Positions 2,806-39,837 of a stretch of DNA of 39,837 bases are shown here, in pieces; within the stretch, counting starts at the first letter, position 1; every line of letters starts with the position of its first letter. Below the pieces are notes generated by a model. It worked only from the letters and a program-made list of their open reading frames with translations, made no database searches and was not told the origin of the DNA. The stretch is taken from positions 1-39,837 of the IMG/VR virus record IMGVR_UViG_3300048838_000710. One strand, 5' to 3'. The stretch comes from a virus. Lineage: Duplodnaviria; Caudoviricetes. A program made the position numbers and the translations under genes.

Positions 2806-4320
2806 TTAGGGTTTCACTGTCCTTCGAGTTGGCGGGTTCTTTAAATCACGGGCATTAATGACCCTCAGTGCTTCCTTGACATGAACCGCACGACCATTCT
2901 TTAAAAGCTGTTCCTTTAGCTCGACCAACTGGAATACATCGAGATCAGCCCGATTCACAAACTGCGTTTCATCGACGTAGGCTATGAAGCCTTCCTTGTC
3001 CTGTTCGTTTAGGTAGCGTCTCATTAACATTCGTCGCTTACCTAAGTTCTGAATCCAGTTTGCACGCAAGAGCGACTGTCCTTGATCTGGTTCGGCCGTT
3101 GGATTAGCTCCCTCTCTTGGGGCATCAAACTTTACAGTTTGGTCGATGTACTTAAATAGTTGCCTTGCAAGCATCAGAGCATCGTCAAGGTTGTCCATTT
3201 GAAAGGTGACGAGATTCCCAAGATTCCAATACTGTTTGATTAGCGTGTCCTCCAGTTGCCAGAATGCCTGAATGATCACAACAGGCATCAATTTCCTTGA
3301 GCGGAAATAGGTTGACACTTGACCGAGGGCTTTCGCCATTCCCTTAATCTCAAAGAGTTTGTACACCTCATCGATGATAAGGAGCACTGGTTTGTCATTC
3401 GGATTGTGTGGGATTCTTTGATTGACCACTGCCCGAAGGGAAGCAAACTCATCCCAAAACACCCATGCCTGAGCCGTCTCTTGGTTGCCCAGCTTCTCCC
3501 CACTTACAAGGTAAATTAGTCCCTTGTCGATGATCTCGCGGTAGGTGATGCCAGGTCGAGCGTGACCGTATCTTGCCCTCAATGGTTCGGTTTCAATCAC
3601 CTGTAGTGCAGTTACTAATGACCCCATCCTTGCCTCTCGACTCGCTTGGTTATGAGGCCGTAGCACTTCAATCTCCAAATACCACTTGGCACTAGGGGCT
3701 TTCTCCCCAAACTTGTCTACGACTCGCTCTAGTAGTCCACCTTCCCCAACATCTACAAGTAGCCTCTTGGCTTCGGTTAGTTGCCATGTCTCGCCTACGT
3801 CATCGACTATCTCGCTTATGAGACGAAACAACTCTGGTGAAGTGGCTTTTATTGCAGTTGCCATTGTTGGGTTTCGTTCCATCTTGTCGGCGTTTAATTC
3901 TTCCAAGATCCCCTTAGCCTTCTGCACCAGCTCCTCTTTAGGCAGTCCGTAGTCAGCATGAAACAGGGGTTTTGGAACAACCCAATTTGGATGTCCCGGC
4001 ATGTCAAGAACTACCCTACGGCGTATCGCTTCCCGATCCTCTGGTGGCAGTCCTTCCATAATAAGTAGGAACTCGTTTGTAAGAGCACCTGAAGCGTCGT
4101 AGACAACTGCCGGCCGCAGTGGATACTCCCTAACATACTTCATGAGCATGTTGGCGGTTGTGATGGTTTTACCTGTACCAGGATTCCCTGAAATTCCTAA
4201 GCCCCGTGTCAAAGAGTCGTAGAACATATCCTCGCTAGAGGTTTCTTTGACATCGGGAAAATCGGGATGATTAGGACCTTTCCTGCCGAATAGAAACGTC
4301 AATGTTTTCCAGTCAAGCAT
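2806..4320 (-). CDS. VirD4/TraD-like type IV coupling-protein ATPase (FtsK-HerA superfamily)
   Basis: Walker A GNPGTGKT, VVYDASG, Walker B LLIIDEVY, RSRKL...IIQ arginine-finger/sensor region; probable start ATG 4320. Confidence 0.78.
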   Translation of the reverse strand: MLDWKTLTFLFGRKGPNHPDFPDVKETSSEDMFYDSLTRGLGISGNPGTGKTITTANMLMKYVREYPLRPAVVYDASGALTNEFLLIMEGLPPEDREAIRRRVVLDMPGHPNWVVPKPLFHADYGLPKEELVQKAKGILEELNADKMERNPTMATAIKATSPELFRLISEIVDDVGETWQLTEAKRLLVDVGEGGLLERVVDKFGEKAPSAKWYLEIEVLRPHNQASREARMGSLVTALQVIETEPLRARYGHARPGITYREIIDKGLIYLVSGEKLGNQETAQAWVFWDEFASLRAVVNQRIPHNPNDKPVLLIIDEVYKLFEIKGMAKALGQVSTYFRSRKLMPVVIIQAFWQLEDTLIKQYWNLGNLVTFQMDNLDDALMLARQLFKYIDQTVKFDAPREGANPTAEPDQGQSLLRANWIQNLGKRRMLMRRYLNEQDKEGFIAYVDETQFVNRADLDVFQLVELKEQLLKNGRAVHVKEALRVINARDLKNPPTRRTVKP

Positions 4321-4973
4321 ACTTTTTCTCCTCTCCATGTGTAAATGGCACTACTTAATTGCTCGCCCAACGGGACGCTATAGAAAAGCCTCTCGGTCGT
4401 GAAATAGAAGTTGTTTAGATCAAACCTGCTCGCCAGTCTATCCACTGCATCATCCGATCCATCGATCACTACAATCACATACGGCTCTGCCTTCCATTCC
4501 TTTCTAAACCGATCGAGGTTCTCCCTGTACATCTGAAGTTTTTTATCGATGAGCTTTGCGCGTCTGAAGTTGTCGGCCGTTGAATACTCAAACAGTAGAA
4601 TCACCCCATCACCGCCGTTGTAATGCACACCAAACTCTGGAACTGGCTTATACTTCGCTGCTCGGAAATACCGCTCGCTTACATATTCGCCGACTTTTGA
4701 TCTATGAAATCTTCCCAGTGCTTCACTGCATTTCAAGCCGTGTAGGATGGTGTGATCACTTATCCCTCTTGTACCTTTTAGTGAATATGCGAGTGCGTGT
4801 CCTACCTGCTGTGTCTTGAGCTTCCTATTTCGCACCAGATAGGGCAGATTACGCTCCATAGCTACCCACCTACCTTTAGCACTCATCACCCGCATAAAAT
4901 CCCTCGCGTAAGCCCAATGAAACAAATACGCCCAATTTAAAATCTGTTCCCTAACAACTGTATAGTTTTCCAT
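4299..4973 (-). CDS. Replication-relaxation / MOBC-like relaxase candidate (wHTH + PD-(D/E)xK-like fold)
   Basis: N-terminal wHTH-like region, LHGLKCSE, PEFGV...LLFEYST...IDKKLQMY resembling the PD...ExD...KL..Y pattern; overlaps the ATPase gene. Confidence 0.6.
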   Translation of the reverse strand: MENYTVVREQILNWAYLFHWAYARDFMRVMSAKGRWVAMERNLPYLVRNRKLKTQQVGHALAYSLKGTRGISDHTILHGLKCSEALGRFHRSKVGEYVSERYFRAAKYKPVPEFGVHYNGGDGVILLFEYSTADNFRRAKLIDKKLQMYRENLDRFRKEWKAEPYVIVVIDGSDDAVDRLASRFDLNNFYFTTERLFYSVPLGEQLSSAIYTWRGEKVCLTGKH

Positions 4974-13815: not shown

Positions 13816-13835
13816 ATTCTAAATTTAACTAAAAC

Positions 13836-13885
13836 AAAAAAGGACTTCAGGGCGCGGATGAATTATCCACACACCCAAAGCCCTT
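13836..13885 (-). terminator. Long hairpin with T run between virion gene and fibre gene
   Basis: Minus strand AAGGGCTTTGGGTGTGTGGAT / ATCCGCGCCCTGAAGTCCTT followed by TTTT. Confidence 0.65.
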
Positions 13886-13906
13886 GAGACTTTATAGGAA
13901 CTACAG

Positions 13907-14696: not shown

Positions 14697-15212
14697 TTAC
14701 ACTGCCGATACTACTTTACTTCCTTCTGTAATTGGTCTCCAAAGGCACACATAGTAAATGTTGCCGGCTGTTATATTAGTTGTCCCCACAGTCTCGATTA
14801 TGTCAGCACCATTTGTAATAAGTTTTGGTCCAGCCACATCAGCAAAGGCAGCAGCTCTAACATCGTCTACTGTTGAATCTACCCAGATATCACCTGCTGC
14901 GATGTCGGTAGCGTCTGCCACTTGGGCAAGTAATTCTGCTGTGTTGCCTAAAACTCCAACTTCGAGTGTTGCTGCTCCCACTAACGTAGTGGTACAGACA
15001 CCATATAGTCTTACCAGCACATCACCCGTAATATTGAATAGTGTAAAGGGATCACTTGTGCCTCCATCATCGCCTCGTGCGTTAGTTGTACCCCCTGCAA
15101 AAGCTGATGGTTCTGCTACTTCCACGAAAAAATCATCCAGCGAAGGTAGCGGAACACCGCCCCCATCTCGTGCTGGAGAATAAAATTTGTTTTGAAAATT
15201 ACTGTTACTCAT
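14697..15212 (-). CDS. Probable virion structural/decoration protein
   Basis: Acidic G/A/T/V-rich beta protein downstream of capsid; AAGGAGGTGA SD places the start at ATG 15212. Confidence 0.65.
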   Translation of the reverse strand: MSNSNFQNKFYSPARDGGGVPLPSLDDFFVEVAEPSAFAGGTTNARGDDGGTSDPFTLFNITGDVLVRLYGVCTTTLVGAATLEVGVLGNTAELLAQVADATDIAAGDIWVDSTVDDVRAAAFADVAGPKLITNGADIIETVGTTNITAGNIYYVCLWRPITEGSKVVSAV

Positions 15213-16010: not shown

Positions 16011-17189
16011 TTAGAATCCGCTTACATCTTGGGTCATCTTGACCATCAAGACTGCACCGTCGTCAAAGGTCTTAGTTCCAACTCCGATTATTCCTTTAGG
16101 TAAATCAGCGAAACCTTTCTCTTTGTCGGCGACCTTCAAATCTACGAATTGAAGAACCATGTCAATGGATCCTCGGATCATAAATACTGAAGTTTGTCGT
16201 TGACTTGTCCAAGCATCGGTTGTATCAGTCAAACCGTCAGAGACGGCGATATCTCCATATCCTGCAAGGGTCATAACATCACCCGAATTGTCGTTCGTAG
16301 CGGTGATATTTCTTTTCCTTCGGATTATGAAGTTCTCTTTAGCACCCATCTGGACATAGTTTGTTCCAGCAGTACCAGAGTCATTGATACAAGCAACTAG
16401 ATTGGCTCTCGATGTGTCAACTGCGGAAGAGTGTCGAAGAACTCCGACATTTCCTGCTGTTACATCTGCAAGGTCATCTTGCCATTCGAAAGTAACACCG
16501 GCAATAGTTACCGTGTCACCATCAGATGGGTTAGTTGCAAGCCCAAGCGTTGCGCTCCAAGGTAGGTTGTTGTTTTGAACAACTGTCCAACCTTGCCAAG
16601 GTCCAACGACTCCATTCGAGAGAACTGAGTCCCCTAGTCGGGATTCTCGGTCAGATTTTGCTCTTCTGAGTTTAGCTACTGTGCGTGGTCCCATTACTGC
16701 GGCTCGCATAGCAGTCTCGTAAGGAGCATCAAATGCACCAAGTTTTCCTTCTGCCTCTTCGAGAATATCCAAAATGTTTGCGCTTGAAACGGCAACTGGC
16801 GAACCAGATATGCTGTGCTCAGCGTTTGCAATCTCGTCCAGGTACTTCTGTTCGACCCTGTTCATCAAACCTTTTCGGATTGATGTCAACGAGTGATTCA
16901 AAAGATCATAGGGAGTTTGGCTACTCTCAGTGATATCAATGTCTTCGGCTGCGTACTCGAAAGTATCAACTTCCAAAGTTTGCTTTGTCGCCGTTTTAGA
17001 CTCAAATGTGATATCAGAGCGTGGAGTATACGTACCCACTTGTGGGTGCGAGAGAATAGGCTTGTGAGCCTTTCTTCCATCGGATCTTATTAGGTCTTCT
17101 AGGGATTGATTAGCAAGATAAACCGCTGTGTTAGCCACATAAAGGTCAGCTTGCAGGTCTCCCCAAAATTCTTGTTTTACGTCTGTCAT
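16011..17189 (-). CDS. Major capsid protein (P22-coat-like) with inserted domain
   Basis: Follows scaffold; LSNGVVGPWQGWTVVQNNNLP matches the HK97-fold G..G...G..V..SNNLP region; strong SD. Confidence 0.82.
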   Translation of the reverse strand: MTDVKQEFWGDLQADLYVANTAVYLANQSLEDLIRSDGRKAHKPILSHPQVGTYTPRSDITFESKTATKQTLEVDTFEYAAEDIDITESSQTPYDLLNHSLTSIRKGLMNRVEQKYLDEIANAEHSISGSPVAVSSANILDILEEAEGKLGAFDAPYETAMRAAVMGPRTVAKLRRAKSDRESRLGDSVLSNGVVGPWQGWTVVQNNNLPWSATLGLATNPSDGDTVTIAGVTFEWQDDLADVTAGNVGVLRHSSAVDTSRANLVACINDSGTAGTNYVQMGAKENFIIRRKRNITATNDNSGDVMTLAGYGDIAVSDGLTDTTDAWTSQRQTSVFMIRGSIDMVLQFVDLKVADKEKGFADLPKGIIGVGTKTFDDGAVLMVKMTQDVSGF

Positions 17190-17273: not shown

Positions 17274-17936
17274 TTACTTCTGTTGTGCGTTCCATTTTTC
17301 TCTCGCAGCTTTGGCTTCCTTCCAAGCCTTAACCCCTTCTTCAGAGTTAAAGTCAAAATCTTCCGGATTCAAAGGCTTCGAGGGATCATAGTCTGGCACA
17401 TGAGTTCCCTTCTTTGAGCGCTTCGGAGTCGCGTTTCTTATACGTTCTTCCTTTTCGGCCTCCTCTTTCCTTTGCAGGATATAAGGATGCTGCGCTGCCT
17501 CCCTAACAGAAATACCTTTTAGCTTGGCTAGATCTTTGACCTCATCTTTGAGTTCATCGGAGAGTTCAAGCGATTCTAGCTCTCTTGCCTCCCAACGTTC
17601 TGTCAGCTTCTGGTCAACTAACTTGTCAATATCAGGTACTTCCTGAGTTTTGGGGTTATCCCCTTCCTTCGGATTATCCTTTGGTTTTTCGGTAAGTCTT
17701 TCTTGGGCTTTGTCCCTCCAGCTTATCTTTTGCTTTATGGCTCCAGATAACCTTTCACGGTTGGCTTTTTCCCGTTCGACAATTTTGTCTAGAAGTTCAG
17801 ATTGCTCATCTGGGTCTATGCCCATCTTTTCTGCAAGGTCTTCTCTCAACTCGTTGTCGTCAACTTCCCTTGTCGCCTCCTCTTCTGCATTTTGCTCCTC
17901 GGGAGACATTTCGAGGTCTTTATTATCTTCGTCCAT
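17274..17936 (-). CDS. Capsid scaffolding protein
   Basis: Highly charged helical 220-aa protein immediately upstream of the capsid gene. Confidence 0.7.
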   Translation of the reverse strand: MDEDNKDLEMSPEEQNAEEEATREVDDNELREDLAEKMGIDPDEQSELLDKIVEREKANRERLSGAIKQKISWRDKAQERLTEKPKDNPKEGDNPKTQEVPDIDKLVDQKLTERWEARELESLELSDELKDEVKDLAKLKGISVREAAQHPYILQRKEEAEKEERIRNATPKRSKKGTHVPDYDPSKPLNPEDFDFNSEEGVKAWKEAKAAREKWNAQQK

Positions 17937-17975
17937 AGGACTATATTTTTTTGCCTCTTAACTGAGGCTGGTAAC

Positions 17976-18109
17976 AAAAAACCGCCGATCTGGCGGTCAA
18001 CTTAGAGGAAGAGAGAAAAGCGTTGTGATTAAACTCTATTCCTCTAAACAAACCGTCAGAGGTTTTCACTTCGCTTTTTAGATTTAGATGTCAATTAGCT
18101 AGTATAGCA
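17976..18109 (-). ncRNA. Promoter and structured leader (terminator/antiterminator) upstream of scaffold-capsid; possible ~120-nt sRNA
   Basis: TGC-TATACT (18109-18101); stems 18051-18060/17989-17998 and 18039-18047/18002-18010; terminator ACCGCC/GGCGGT plus T run at 17976-17997; loop carries TCACAACGCTT. Confidence 0.7.
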
Positions 18110-18117
18110 CACCCGTT

Positions 18118-18450
18118 CTATGGATGTCTAAACTTGTGTCCACAATTAGGACAAGCAACTCTAGATTTCACCTCGGCGAATTTTATCGTGTATCCTCCCC
18201 GATCTGGGTGAGAGATAAATTGTTCAGCCATCGCCACGTAGTCTTTTCCGTGTTGTTCAAGACTATACGTTCTGACTTCATGTTTACCGTCGAAGATCAC
18301 GGCATCTTTGGTTTCGGTTGCATTTTTCTTTGGGGATGTTTTTGGGGAGCCTTCTACTTCGGCAATTGCTTTCTCTAGATCTTCGGCTGACACGCCGACA
18401 TGTTTAATGCCTAGCTCTTTTGCTTTGGACTGTAAATCTTTGTAACTCAC
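18118..18450 (-). CDS. Hypothetical protein: Rho-N/HeH-like N terminus, C-terminal CPNCG zinc knuckle
   Basis: YKDLQSKAKELGI...EDLEKAI; probable leaderless GTG start at 18450. Confidence 0.65.
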   Translation of the reverse strand: MSYKDLQSKAKELGIKHVGVSAEDLEKAIAEVEGSPKTSPKKNATETKDAVIFDGKHEVRTYSLEQHGKDYVAMAEQFISHPDRGGYTIKFAEVKSRVACPNCGHKFRHP

Positions 18451-18488
18451 AGTGCATTTTGACACGTCGTAAATAGGAAAGTCAAGTA

Positions 18489-18647
18489 TCAGAATCCGTA
18501 AGATTTCTCAACGTGTTTGGCACGCATTTCTCGCTCTCTTTTCAGCTTCTCGCGAGGATCAGGACTTTGGGCTTTCTTTACCGATTCTTCGAGCCACTTC
18601 TTGATTTGGTTTTTGGTGGCCTCATTATTTGGTTTCGGTTGATTCAT
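18489..18647 (-). CDS. 52-aa hypothetical protein absent from the ORF track (MNQPKPNNE...KHVEKSYGF)
   Basis: ATGA overlap with the upstream stop; fills the gap exactly. Confidence 0.65.
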   Translation of the reverse strand: MNQPKPNNEATKNQIKKWLEESVKKAQSPDPREKLKREREMRAKHVEKSYGF

Positions 18648-20956: not shown

Positions 20957-20985
20957 AAGCGATATGCTTGCCCAATCGGGCTTTC

Positions 20986-21010
20986 CACAACGCTTATGTC
21001 AAGTATAACA
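20986..21010 (-). promoter_or_regulatory. terS promoter with +1 motif AAGCGTTGTG
   Basis: TGT-TATACT, 6 nt, AAGCGTTGTG (20995-20986). Confidence 0.7.
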
Positions 21011-24631: not shown

Positions 24632-24650
24632 AAATGCGTTCTAAAACTGT

Positions 24651-24672
24651 CACAACACTTTACAAAATCATA
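24651..24672 (-). promoter_or_regulatory. Promoter with +1 motif variant AAGTGTTGTG
   Basis: TATGAT (24672-24667), 6 nt, AAGTGTTGTGAC. Confidence 0.65.
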
Positions 24673-24688
24673 ATACTACAATATCCGC

Positions 24689-24961
24689 CTAGATGATATT
24701 CAGATTTCCAGACAATATTGTGAGTGTCCCGTCCATACCTACCTTGAATGGAGCATCCTCAAAATCTGCCGCTCCCAACCAGATCCCATTGTCATCTGAA
24801 CCAAATACGTTATCTCCCTGACCCCTTTTGAATACTCGAGAGAATGCCTGCAAACCACCTATTGATTCCGCAAATGGCATTGCTCCTGCAACATAAGGTG
24901 TGACCAGCTCTTGCTCGGCTGCTAAGAGGTTTTTAAATTTAGGTGTTAAATCTTTTGCCAT
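24689..24961 (-). CDS. Small tail-associated protein
   Basis: TAATG overlap with the tail gene; NGIWLGAADFEDAPFKVGMDG beta motif. Confidence 0.6.
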   Translation of the reverse strand: MAKDLTPKFKNLLAAEQELVTPYVAGAMPFAESIGGLQAFSRVFKRGQGDNVFGSDDNGIWLGAADFEDAPFKVGMDGTLTILSGNLNII

Positions 24962-29409: not shown

Positions 29410-29416
29410 ATACAAG

Positions 29417-29442
29417 TCACAACGCTTGTATCCATCATAGCA
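29417..29442 (-). promoter_or_regulatory. Adaptor/portal operon promoter with +1 motif AAGCGTTGTGA
   Basis: TGC-TATGAT, 6 nt, AAGCGTTGTGAC (29427-29416). Confidence 0.7.
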
Positions 29443-31135: not shown

Positions 31136-32209
31136 TTGGACTGCCCCACGACACTTGATAGCTTAGTTGAAAGCATTGATCAAACACCCATATCAGTGAC
31201 ACCTAAAGGCATTTTATATAAGGGTGATTCGCTTGAGGTGCTTAAGAAGTTTCCTGATCACAGCGTTTCATTGATTATCACAGACCCCCCCTATCATACA
31301 ACCGGCAAGAAGAATATCTATGGCGATACTGCATTCAAAGAGGATGAGCATTATCTTGAATGGATGGCTCTATATTCGAAAGAATGGATCCGAGTTTTGA
31401 AACCAAACGGCTCATTGTTTTGTTTCTGTTCCCCAGCAATGGCTGGCAGGCTAGAGGGAATACTTTTCAATTACTTTAATGTTCTTTCTCATATTGTCTG
31501 GACCAAACCCAATGAACCAGGGTTCGACGGCTGGAAACAAAAGATGAGTAAGGGTGCACTTAGACAATGGTACGATCATTCAGAGAGAATCATCTTCGCT
31601 GAACCAGCTAAACCAGGAAACCTGTACCGATCATATTTCGGAAACCTAATAAAGGAATTTAGGCTAGAAGCTGGACTAACATGTAAGTCACTAACCGAAA
31701 TGATTGGAGCGTACGGCAAAGTTAATCATGGAGGAGCCGTCGCAAACTGGGAAGCGGGCAGAAATGTCCCTAGTGAAGAACAGTACGAAAAGTTAAGATG
31801 GGCAATCAAGCAAACCAGTGGTAAGGAGATGCCCGAATATCAAGAGGTGGTGCGCCCTTTCAATGTGGATAAGACCAAAGAGTTTATTGACGTCTGGACA
31901 TTTCCTAACATTCGACCATATAACGGAAAGCATCCCGCTGAGAAACCGATAGCCTTATTGGAACATGCAATTGCGGCCACAACTTATCCCGGCGATATTG
32001 TACTAGATTGTTTTGCAGGTTCAGGTTCAACTGCAGTCGCAGCGATGAAACTTGGGAGGAGATCGGTGTCCATAGAGATCGAGCAAAAGTGGTGCAATAA
32101 AATCGCGAAACTCTTGAAATTTCTAAGCGACAGAGATTACACCATCTTTCCCGACAACTACGATTCAACGTCTATGTCACTAGAACGTTTTCAGGGCAGA
32201 CTATTCTGA
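31136..32209 (+). CDS. Beta-class N4/N6 DNA methyltransferase with internal XRE-type HTH
   Basis: ITDPPY, HPAEKP, VLDCFAGSGST; insert IKEFRLEAGLTCKSL...VANWEAGRNVP. Confidence 0.92.
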   Translation: MDCPTTLDSLVESIDQTPISVTPKGILYKGDSLEVLKKFPDHSVSLIITDPPYHTTGKKNIYGDTAFKEDEHYLEWMALYSKEWIRVLKPNGSLFCFCSPAMAGRLEGILFNYFNVLSHIVWTKPNEPGFDGWKQKMSKGALRQWYDHSERIIFAEPAKPGNLYRSYFGNLIKEFRLEAGLTCKSLTEMIGAYGKVNHGGAVANWEAGRNVPSEEQYEKLRWAIKQTSGKEMPEYQEVVRPFNVDKTKEFIDVWTFPNIRPYNGKHPAEKPIALLEHAIAATTYPGDIVLDCFAGSGSTAVAAMKLGRRSVSIEIEQKWCNKIAKLLKFLSDRDYTIFPDNYDSTSMSLERFQGRLF

Positions 32210-33171
32210 CTCACAAATCCCGATTGGTGATTTCTCTCAAGCACTTGTTGCATCCAATTAAGTGTCTTTTCGACCCCATCGTCTTTCGTGACAACATTGC
32301 AATGGTGATGTCCCCAGCCTAAATTATACGGTCTGTGATTATAGCTCCCATACCTCAGCTCCTTTATGTGAAAGAGATTTATCTCAGTTACAGTCAGATC
32401 TGGGACATCTCGGCCCTCTGCTTGAATCAGCCTTCTTAAGAAACCGTTCCCTGACAACTCTTCCAAACATAAAGGACAAACCGTCCTATTTTGCTTGTTG
32501 ATGATCCTTGCTTGAATCAACTGGTCAAAATCAAGAAGTTTGAGCTGATGACAATTATTGAGAATAGTATCTTTTCGATATATTGCCCCTTCTTTGTTCA
32601 TCCCATTGTCGCTAACGGTCTCAACCGAATCAAGACATAGCCAATATATCGCCTCCAACTGCAAACGGCACTTGGCTAAATTTGTAGTGCTAGCATATTC
32701 ATAGAGTCTAATCCCTGCACCTTTATTTTTGGATGATGTAAACCCTCTTCTTATCTTCTCGCCACCTTCTGTTGCTGTAGTAGCGGGAACCCTCGCGACA
32801 TAGTGTCCGCCAAGGGGTGCTTTTCTACTTTGTGCTGGAGTCCAACCGAGTTTCTCTGGGTTATATCGCTCCCAGTCTGATCTAGTTTCATAGAAGACAA
32901 TACAATTGTGCCCCAATTCTAAGTCTAGCGCTTCCGGCAGAACATCACTTTCAAAATAGATCTGTGGGGTGATCAGGACAATATAACCATTGTCAAAACC
33001 ATCTTCAGGAAAGAGAGTTTGAGACCCCCAGAAGGGGTAAGGTATCAAGACGGTTGAGTTTCTACCTACTCGGTTCTGGTAGATAACATCATCATCGGCT
33101 CCTCGTGTCTGCCCCGTCTTATAAATCTTCCTGTCGAGCAATTGAGGTAACTTGGGCAATCTTGGCTTCAT
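32191..33171 (-). CDS. BstXI-family type II restriction endonuclease (HNH-type active site)
   Basis: N terminus LPQLLDRKIYKTGQTRGADDDVIYQNRV recognised as BstXI family; CPLC...LFHI...NLGWGHHHCN; convergent with the MTase. Confidence 0.82.
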   Translation of the reverse strand: MKPRLPKLPQLLDRKIYKTGQTRGADDDVIYQNRVGRNSTVLIPYPFWGSQTLFPEDGFDNGYIVLITPQIYFESDVLPEALDLELGHNCIVFYETRSDWERYNPEKLGWTPAQSRKAPLGGHYVARVPATTATEGGEKIRRGFTSSKNKGAGIRLYEYASTTNLAKCRLQLEAIYWLCLDSVETVSDNGMNKEGAIYRKDTILNNCHQLKLLDFDQLIQARIINKQNRTVCPLCLEELSGNGFLRRLIQAEGRDVPDLTVTEINLFHIKELRYGSYNHRPYNLGWGHHHCNVVTKDDGVEKTLNWMQQVLERNHQSGFVSQNSLP

Positions 33172-38449: not shown

Positions 38450-38499
38450 GGCGTATGGTATCATGGTGTCAAAGTAGGTTGTCAATAGGGGTTGTAACT

Positions 38500-39588
38500 G
38501 TGAAGCGTAGAGAGCAAGGCGAGGGAACTGTATATCCTCAGCGCGATAAATGGATCGCTCAACTCACCCTGCCGAATGGCAAACGCCGCTCAAAAAGTTG
38601 CGAGTCAAAAAAAGAAGCCCTCAACTGGTTGTCGGCGGAAAAAAGTAAAATCAATCAAGGACTTTTTGTAGCCGATAACCGTCTACGAATTGGCGACTTT
38701 TTGGCGAGCTACATGAGCGGCGTGGCGGAGCATACCCTGCGCCCAACTACACTCCAAGCCCACTACTCTTTAATCAATAATCACATAGTCCCCGAACTGG
38801 GCAATATTCGCTTGTCTGATCTGCAACCCAATCAGGTGCAAGCGTTTTATGCACAGAAACTTGATGAGGGATTATCTAAGCGTACGGTCCAGTATCTCCA
38901 TGCGATACTTCATAAAGCCCTTAATCAAGCCCTACGGTGGGGACTGGTGGTTAGAAATGTTACTGACCTAGTGGATGTTCCATCACCCGAAAGACGCTCT
39001 CCTCATGTGTGGACTGTCGCCGAAGTGCAAACATTTCTCTTAGCAGTCTCGGATCATCGTTGGTATCCAATCTATGTGATCGCGATTTACTGCGGACTAA
39101 GAAAGGGCGAAATATTGGGATTATCGAAAAGCGATATTGATCTGTCGCGAGGGGTGATTCGTGTAAGACACCAAGTAACACAAGTGCAGGGACTTGGGTC
39201 TGTTATCTCTGAGCCGAAGACTGAAAAAGCGAAACGTCAAGTAACCATCTCGGAGTTTCCGATCCAAGTGCTCCGCGATCATCTTAACTCACTCAAAGAT
39301 AATCAATCACTCTTATTTGCCACTGCTTCGGGTAAACCTCTAAGCTCTCGCAATGTGGTCCGGCACTTCAAAAGTGTTATTGAATCCACTGGATTACCCG
39401 ACATTCGATTCCATGATCTAAGACATACCCATGCGACATTACTATTGTCGGCTGGAACACATCCAAAAGTTGTGCAGGAAAGATTAGGTCATAGTCAGAT
39501 TAGTTTGACACTCTCGACCTACTCCCATGTGATGCCAGGAATCCAAGAAAAAGCTGCCGATGACTTCCAAAGAATCATGGACAATTAA
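38500..39588 (+). CDS. int: Tyrosine recombinase/integrase
   Basis: GEGTVY arm-binding N terminus; GLRKGE, PKT, HDLRHTHAT, LGHS and TYSH catalytic residues; probable GTG start at 38500. Confidence 0.97.
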   Translation: MKRREQGEGTVYPQRDKWIAQLTLPNGKRRSKSCESKKEALNWLSAEKSKINQGLFVADNRLRIGDFLASYMSGVAEHTLRPTTLQAHYSLINNHIVPELGNIRLSDLQPNQVQAFYAQKLDEGLSKRTVQYLHAILHKALNQALRWGLVVRNVTDLVDVPSPERRSPHVWTVAEVQTFLLAVSDHRWYPIYVIAIYCGLRKGEILGLSKSDIDLSRGVIRVRHQVTQVQGLGSVISEPKTEKAKRQVTISEFPIQVLRDHLNSLKDNQSLLFATASGKPLSSRNVVRHFKSVIESTGLPDIRFHDLRHTHATLLLSAGTHPKVVQERLGHSQISLTLSTYSHVMPGIQEKAADDFQRIMDN

Positions 39589-39711: not shown

Positions 39712-39753
39712 CTCTTAATCAATTGGTTGTAGGTTCAAATCCTACCAGGGTCA
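39712..39753 (+). repeat. attR: displaced 3' half of the host tRNA-Lys
   Basis: CTCTTAATCAATTGGTTG-TAGGTTCAAATCCTA-CCAGGGTCA. Confidence 0.93.
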
Positions 39754-39837
39754 TGACAAACCAAGCGGCCGGATTGGTTGACTCACTTCTGTATTTGGTT
39801 TGTAAGATGCGTCGATTAGGTCGGGGTAGTTTCTTGC

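Follow-up and report, generated by a model that had tools for sequence, protein, structure and literature searches.

Comparative sequence analysis points to an RNA word and a capsid-leader loop that link the late operons of a prophage family

Comparative sequence analysis indicates that the late operons of a family of phages are linked by a real, covariation-supported, family-specific and previously undescribed RNA system, in which one word, located shortly downstream of several late promoters, matches one loop in the leader of the scaffold and capsid genes. Late genes of phages are normally switched on by proteins, such as Q, late sigma factors, activators or phage polymerases. If the late genes were indeed joined into a regulon by one RNA word and a loop in the capsid leader, phages would possess a new means of timing and coordinating virion genes, a natural counterpart of engineered toehold and STAR circuits, and it would be categorically new if the protein-free form of the model discussed below holds. 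If the acting factor is a protein, the finding would still comprise an undescribed covariation-supported RNA motif with its regulon, together with a defined bait for that protein. The natural word variants of the related loci L106, L089 and L097 provide ready-made specificity controls.

The window, i.e. the whole stretch of 39,837 nucleotides that was analysed, is a virus record that has the appearance of a complete prophage: it contains a tRNA-Lys(CTT) gene overlapped by a 43-nt direct repeat (109-151 and 39712-39754), and it encodes an integrase at 38455-39588. The minus strand carries the virion genes, namely those for the adaptor, portal-like, tail and ejection-type proteins, the small and large terminase subunits, four small ORFs, the scaffold and the major capsid protein. 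The predicted scaffolding protein (220 aa; 17274-17936, minus strand) was assigned by position and composition, without a family match, and the major capsid protein (392 aa; 16011-17189, minus strand) matches PHROG 267 (E 4e-17). No named phage exceeds 55% capsid identity to the window.

The leader of the scaffold gene contains all the sequence features that the initial annotation had described on the minus strand. It follows a predicted sigma70-type promoter (TAGACA, 18 nt, TG-TATACT; 18101-18130, minus strand as are all features below), recognised by consensus match only. Downstream come a cis copy "a" of the 10-base word AAGCGTTGTG, with two mismatches to it (AAAAGCGAAGTGA / AAGCGAAGTG; 18066-18078), and the 5' arm of the lower stem, TCTGACGGTT (18051-18060), which is the antiterminator strand and pairs with the 5' arm of the terminator, mostly with an A.C-type mismatch at the fifth pair. 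The upper stem is formed by TTAGAGGAA-T-AGAG (18034-18047, with TTAGAGGAA at 18047-18039) and CTCT-C-TTCCTCTAA (18002-18015, with TTCCTCTAA at 18010-18002), and it presents an 18-nt apical loop (18016-18033) containing a' = TCACAACGCTTTT (18028-18016), the exact complement of the word and the proposed key. An intrinsic-terminator-like hairpin with a U-run, ACCGCC-AGATC-GGCGGT-TTTTT (17976-17997), follows, and its 5' arm doubles as the 3' arm of the lower stem. The leader ends with a GCCTC/GAGGC hairpin, an A-run and GTCCT before the scaffold ATG (17937-17968), a segment present also in relatives without the switch.

Overlapping, mutually exclusive terminator and antiterminator helices are thus present in this leader, and the antiterminator stem covaries among relatives. 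The leader fold is more stable than that of shuffled sequences (z = -3.19; 1 of 200 shuffles equally stable), and the terminator pattern by itself is within chance (11 found in the region vs 14.5 expected). The terminator and antiterminator folds of the window leader differ by no more than 1 kcal/mol (-29.5 vs -28.5). The initial annotation had proposed that cis pairing of the word copy with the loop favours termination, and folding of successive prefixes indeed reveals a transient cis word:loop helix, with P = 0.99 when the 3' end lies at 18016-18008 and 0.02 by 18000, by which point the upper stem has displaced it; the antiterminator is reached at 17988 (P 1.0). The predicted consequence of this pairing did not hold at equilibrium in the window, where the terminator probability was 0.63 in the free leader, 0.64 with the word blocked and 0.63 with the loop blocked, so any switching of the window leader must be kinetic. 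The window loop is exposed in both end states. An H-type pseudoknot containing both helices at once was ruled out by inspection, the linker between the loop word and the 3' arm of the stem being 1-3 nt.

Several conserved features surround the element. A GCC-loop-GGC hairpin followed by an A-run and (G)TCCT-ATG precedes the scaffold start in most related scaffold leaders, with or without the switch, and a similar hairpin, GCCC-GATT-GGGC, occurs in the leader of the gene for the small terminase subunit (terS); the hairpin before the scaffold is possibly a site of translational control or of scaffold autoregulation, the latter being reportedly known from P22. Just upstream of the leader lie genes for a conserved 115-aa protein (18118-18465; a SAP-like lead at cosine 0.76 and a weak zinc-ribbon match) and a basic 52-aa protein (18489-18647), which occur in phages both with and without the element. 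The word begins 12-24 nt past the stop codon of the 115-aa gene in many relatives.

Capsid-based scans combined with a pattern scan identified 110 loci with a scaffold gene, comprising 66 distinct leaders; 13 further loci, without a callable scaffold, were kept outside the 110, and a second capsid profile scan added at least one locus. The layout word, arm, complement, arm is found in 36 of the 66 distinct related leaders. From these, 34 were analysed, leaving out one near-duplicate and one incomplete leader, and 31 were aligned, leaving out two further near-duplicates and one leader with an insertion. In the alignment, changes on both sides of the helix were observed at 6 of 10 word:loop pairs and 16 of 20 long-stem pairs, and 87.5% of the alignment cells pair, vs 32-46% in slid controls; the shuffle control for covariation ignores relatedness among the leaders. 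The two covarying helices cross, and both cannot form in full. At equilibrium the word:loop helix is dominant in 13 of the 34 leaders, minor in 18 and intermediate in 3, with the loop hidden in the equilibrium fold of 13; upon removal of the word, at least 7 of 10 loop positions are unpaired in 32 of the 34.

These data uphold the earlier notion of a two-state RNA, since both the word:loop helix and the long stem covary, and do not support termination as its conserved output: a hairpin with a U-run is present in only 17 of the 34 leaders, interrupted in three, and the cells of the terminator hairpin are 65% paired in the alignment. Among these 17 leaders, blocking the word lowered the terminator probability by at least 0.4 in six and blocking the loop in three; an effect of at least 0.4 from either block was seen in seven leaders overall, three of them near-identical and the window not among them. 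The mismatches of the cis copy in the window had been read as a built-in imperfect decoy. This copy pairs perfectly with the loop in 20 of the 34 relatives, so the imperfection is not a conserved design, and its appearance in the window is, on comparison of the leaders, best described as lineage-specific decay that was over-read.

On a capsid tree of 56 rows, which leaves out 10 partial proteins, the element marks 30 rows and needs 9 gains or losses, at least 5 of them forced. The sequence of the word is conserved across capsids that are 55-88% identical, and the distance between the -10 box and the word in scaffold leaders ranges from 4 to 29 nt. In locus L106, a second full copy of the element (14949-15042; 73 bits, model R1) precedes a gene for a 112-aa hydrophobic protein. 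The word, lock and ATG layout was sought outside this capsid family by two pattern scans, whose mostly unrelated matches were read by eye, and was found in none of the matches listed. Scaffold leaders without the word (L010, at 4150-4250, L164, L100-L104, L163 and L165) have other long near-perfect hairpins at the same position. The scaffold promoters of L005, L106, L110, L117, L138 and L143 have TTGAC(A) about 6-9 nt, not 17 nt, upstream of a TATAAT-like box, a short spacing that may represent a host-specific promoter layout.

The annotated leader is the hub of a larger RNA system. In the window, the word starts 6 nt past the -10 box before the terminase, ejection (with one mismatch) and adaptor/portal genes. 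The exact word occurs three times in the window, vs a mean of 0.04 in shuffled sequences (maximum 1 in 300), and the pattern of a -10 box, 5-8 nt and the word three times vs 0.03. The terS leader (20957-21007, minus strand) consists of TATACT, 6 nt, the word (20995-20986), an internal hairpin and the cis partner CGCTT directly before the ATG. In the leader of a 413-aa gene, ejection-type by position (24632-24672, minus strand), TATGAT and 6 nt are followed by AAGTGTTGTG (24660-24651) and the cis partner AACGCAT (24640-24634). The leader of the adaptor/portal operon (29410-29439, minus strand; SU10_adaptor) comprises TATGAT, 6 nt and the word (29427-29418), with the ATG 8 nt further on and without a cis lock beyond chance. 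Overall, terminase, ejection, adaptor/portal, tail and some other late genes are preceded by the word at about 4-11 nt past the -10 box, near +1 and in every case in the direction of transcription. With up to two mismatches, it precedes 28 of 40 terS, ejection and adaptor starts in hairpin-bearing phages vs 0 of 26 in hairpin-less ones, a count in which five starts fall outside the sequences covered and a few are probably mis-called. The proposed complementarity between the loop and the 5' ends of other late transcripts is borne out, and the loop and the promoter words change together in three lineages. Elsewhere the word is sparse: L089 and L108 have one other word each within 29-39 kb, and L001, L006, L172, L030, L090, L153 and L162 have none within the 3-15 kb examined per record. 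In phages without the word (L008, L011, L079, L087, L098, L100, L102 and others), the late genes mostly appear leaderless, with their own -10 box 6-8 nt before the ATG.

At most of these other promoters the word is predicted to be folded shut. A set of 38 distinct non-scaffold leaders was assembled from sequences that resemble the word, pass a -10 filter and have an ATG no more than 60 nt away; two matches were dropped by hand and matches without a near ATG were left out. The probability that the word is paired in cis exceeds 0.5 in 36 of the 38, the partner usually ending at the ATG, and this pairing beats that of the leaders' own shuffles at p <= 0.05 in 26. The three other leaders of the window are weak cases (p = 0.07, 0.08 and 0.80). 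The spacer between word and complement varies from a few nucleotides to about 35 and can contain inner hairpins, and 37 of the 299 pairs are G-U. With the word held single-stranded, the predicted openness of the start region across the 38 leaders rises from 0.39 to 0.69. In L107 (at -3055 and +8266 from the scaffold start) and L142 (+708), a U-run comes immediately after the hairpin made by the word and its complement, which gives the lock itself the look of a terminator. We infer from these folds that a cis-paired word would mean OFF and a captured word ON, a sign that is largely consistent among the leaders. The predicted duplex with the loop is stronger than the cis lock in all 38 leaders (median -15.3 vs -8.2 kcal/mol), a toehold of at least 2 nt is predicted in 28, and the net energy of capture, calculated without the costs of loop constraint and kissing geometry, is below zero in 29 and below -3 kcal/mol in 16.

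Tentatively, and with a confidence that stays somewhat short of even, we propose that the loop of the scaffold leader acts in trans as an RNA key that unlocks the other late mRNAs. The word is observed past the -10 boxes of late promoters; in most of these leaders, it is predicted to pair with a shorter, wobble-rich copy ending at the ATG or to form a hairpin and U-run terminator, either of which would keep the gene OFF. In the scaffold leader, where the helices covary, the leader's own word would pair with the emerging loop, thereby hiding the key (OFF) and, in half of the phages, also freeing the terminator; alternatively, the long stem would expose the loop and sequester the terminator arm (ON). 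An exposed loop would invade other leaders through unpaired toehold bases and displace the weaker lock, and it could likewise capture the word of nascent scaffold leaders; such positive feedback would tie the expression of all virion genes to that of the capsid operon. As a guess, the first trigger may be the increase in copy number that follows replication. The full version of this scheme, which appears possible though rather doubtful, is a protein-free, self-amplifying late switch with the capsid mRNA leader as master activator of the late programme: its loop would, by strand displacement, unlock start codons and terminators in the other mRNAs for virion proteins and in those of the lysis region, and flip new capsid leaders ON, forming a natural one-key-many-locks toehold network with lineage-specific variants of the word.

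Four observations argue for the loop as a capturer of words. It is displayed unpaired in nearly all leaders once the word is removed, and does not share bases with the stem as would be expected of a simple cis switch. It stays intact where the cis word has changed or been lost, in seven leaders vs one with the reverse, a weak asymmetry of about six events (sign test p ~0.06-0.07); in L138, for example, both the cis word and the U-run are lost, and a perfect loop and the locked leaders are kept. The loop and the words at other promoters change together in L106 (AAACG), L089 (AAGCA) and L097 (GAGCG). Finally, single target sites are often lost in hairpin-bearing phages (12 of 40, about 30%), yet hairpin-less records keep none of 26. 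Among 17 phages, the best of the other words fits the loop better than the leader's own cis word does in six and never less well, and the mean of the other words fits it less well than that cis word in about three. A separate key RNA was not found: the late strand of the window has no exact complement of the word other than the loop, and a pattern search of nine related records, L138 being outside these, returned, inside the phage region, the cis partners as complement sites, plus a few weaker matches. Several points count against this proposal. The co-variation and co-occurrence would also be expected if a third factor bound the word; no lock beyond chance is predicted in the adaptor leader, and in several hairpin-bearing phages the DNA examined has one other word or none; and in many leaders the duplex would end as close as 8-20 nt to the start codon, where it might hinder ribosomes rather than free them.

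The main rival is a phage or host RNA-binding protein that recognises the word on nascent late RNAs, blocks cis pairing, opens start codons and prevents termination, with the loop serving as a mere cis anti-word of the scaffold leader. We consider this explanation unlikely, while acknowledging that it accounts for the same sign at all sites, for the terminator-type locks of L107 and L142, which need fast co-transcriptional capture, for the conservation of the word across diverged capsids and for hairpins retained where few or no other words are seen; the small proteins encoded just upstream of the leader, the 52-aa one basic and the 115-aa one SAP-like with a zinc ribbon, offer leads only. Against it, no protein tracks the system: no non-virion family is common to more than 7 of the 17 hairpin-bearing records, most records being fragments, so that a diverged regulator could be missed, and the two small proteins occur also in 10 of 13 and 13 of 13 hairpin-less records. 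The loss of about 30% of the target sites, set beside the complete lack of words in hairpin-less records, and the perfect loop kept while the cis word decays fit a protein poorly as well. Two candidates were rejected. The 90-aa ORF at 24689-24961, with four unnamed homologues and the best co-occurrence (12 of 17 vs 0 of 13), represents an N-terminal module found in variable tail-type proteins and has weak homologues in three hairpin-less records, and the presence of the integrase does not follow the element.

The initial annotation had assumed the opposite direction, with free 5' ends of other late mRNAs displacing the imperfect cis copy from the loop, so that transcription reads through into the scaffold and capsid genes. 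The true direction is probably the reverse: with their words predicted to be locked in cis, the other transcripts would be poorly suited as triggers and are likely to be the targets. It would then probably be the cis partners in those leaders that are the imperfect decoys, with the scaffold loop as the strand that matches perfectly. The trans words of the window do pair better with the loop (-15.2 to -16.7 kcal/mol) than the cis copy does (-11.7), the cis helix does form first during synthesis of the window leader, and the better match to other promoters in 6 of 17 phages would fit too. As the regulated direction it nevertheless seems improbable, because the cis copy is so often perfect, half of the leaders lack a U-run, blocking the loop rarely lowers termination, and the locks at the other leaders are left unexplained. 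The duplex it invokes and the one in which the loop acts as key involve the same pair of molecules and differ in the regulated partner, and both partners could be regulated. A low probability is likewise assigned to the loop-bearing leader RNA being a repressor that, by binding the word near start codons, limits the synthesis of low-copy virion proteins or prevents it in the lysogen. Its anatomy recalls the loops of CI/seqA/seqC and C4, no more than 8 nt separate the word from the ATG in the adaptor leader, which has no lock, and the exposure of the window loop in both end states would suit such a role; however, word capture at the hairpin and U-run sites of L107 and L142 would stop termination and hence activate, most targets are already locked in cis, and the equilibrium fold hides the loop in 13 of the 34 leaders. 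The word could, very improbably, act as DNA, as an operator over +1 or as a sigma70-dependent pause site for a Q-like antiterminator, its complements being second half-sites. Its constant orientation near +1 agrees with this, as do its A at position 2 and T at position 6, which may resemble a -10-like pause element, but the variable spacer with inner hairpins, the G-U pairs, the covarying stem and the 4-29 nt range of distances in scaffold leaders do not, and no Q-family protein was found among the proteins scanned.

The proposal of a loop that unlocks late mRNAs has partial parallels among known systems. A search of Rfam 15, including riboswitches, T-box, C4 and c4-a1b1, at the gathering threshold returned only a tRNA for the whole window, and by E-value the best matches over the leader reached 12-23 bits vs thresholds of 37-100; a match to a known riboswitch, which the initial annotation had named as a possible refutation, was thus not obtained, nor was one to any other Rfam family over the leader. 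P4 CI with seqA/seqC (PMC4825925) and P1/P7 C4 (PMC5320573) are structured phage RNAs cut from a leader, which use short single-stranded loops to pair with complementary sites, one of these lying upstream in the same transcript, control termination or ribosome access and shift in specificity between related phages. Here too, the loop is complementary to sites upstream in its own transcript and elsewhere. CI and C4, however, are processed (C4 by RNase P) and repress lytic genes at one locus, whereas here several late operons across the genome are concerned, each pre-locked in cis, so that pairing is predicted to activate, unlike with CI and C4. The element has a single long stem with one loop instead of the three-stem fold with two pairing loops, has no Rfam C4 match and is not a member of C4/CI. 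In the sign of the predicted effect, activation by trans pairing upstream of the start, it resembles activating sRNAs that open an inhibitory 5' hairpin and thereby raise translation or prevent premature termination, namely lambda PreS/LPR1 on dnaN (10.1101/2024.10.31.621285) and the sRNAs on rpoS (PMC6582626). Those sRNAs are free-standing, Hfq-dependent and directed at host genes, with Rho-dependent termination in the case of rpoS; in contrast, the leader of the phage's own capsid mRNA is the proposed key, one word is common to many phage targets, and the terminator is intrinsic. Lambda pR'/Q late control and the terminated leader RNA StxS (PMC7171158 and PMC7547250) combine a late promoter with an early stop and a terminated leader that could act in trans; the present system differs in its several late promoters, mostly translational locks and covarying RNA helices. 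No Q-family match was found among 39 proteins searched with PHROGs and 30 with Pfam, and the word lies 6 nt past the -10 box at three window promoters and at varying distances in relatives; the element is not a member of the Q systems. The literature searched contained no description of the word or of the system, and supplements 3-6 of the viral structured-RNA catalogue (PMC10690425), the parts covered, had no match to the word, although the motif may be among its unnamed candidates.

The strand-displacement logic of the proposed key resembles that of engineered RNA. In synthetic toehold switches and STARs, a better-matched trans strand displaces a weaker cis lock and releases a start codon or a terminator. 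The system proposed here would differ in being natural, in using one key for many locks and only 10-13 bp, and in that the key itself would be locked in cis.

As to the host, a tRNA-based search gave no discrimination, with no control phylum in the comparison. Three genome matches were obtained: a Ca. Shapirobacteria MAG contributes one, a 39-kb contig, and the other two fall on long contigs titled Gammaproteobacteria. On one of the latter, a gene for a 469-aa IF-2 adjoins the prophage, a size that would fit Patescibacteria better. Scanned with model R1, 150 of the 151 genomes from the phylum to which G007 belongs gave no copy. The close capsid relatives L001, L003, L005, L006 and L007 have a terminase large subunit of a different family from that of the window, which suggests module exchange upstream of the conserved leader. 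Elsewhere on the minus strand of the window, with no word nearby, a long hairpin followed by a U-run (13830-13900) lies just before a 1074-aa tail-type gene. The region 2806-4973 encodes a TrwB/TraG-like ATPase (Pfam) and a neighbouring 224-aa protein, is common to 4-5 related phages and resembles conjugative-element-like phage cargo. At 31136-33171 there is a convergent pair of genes for proteins of 357 and 326 aa, the former of which looks, by eye, like a DNA methyltransferase (DPPY motif), and the latter may be its endonuclease partner.
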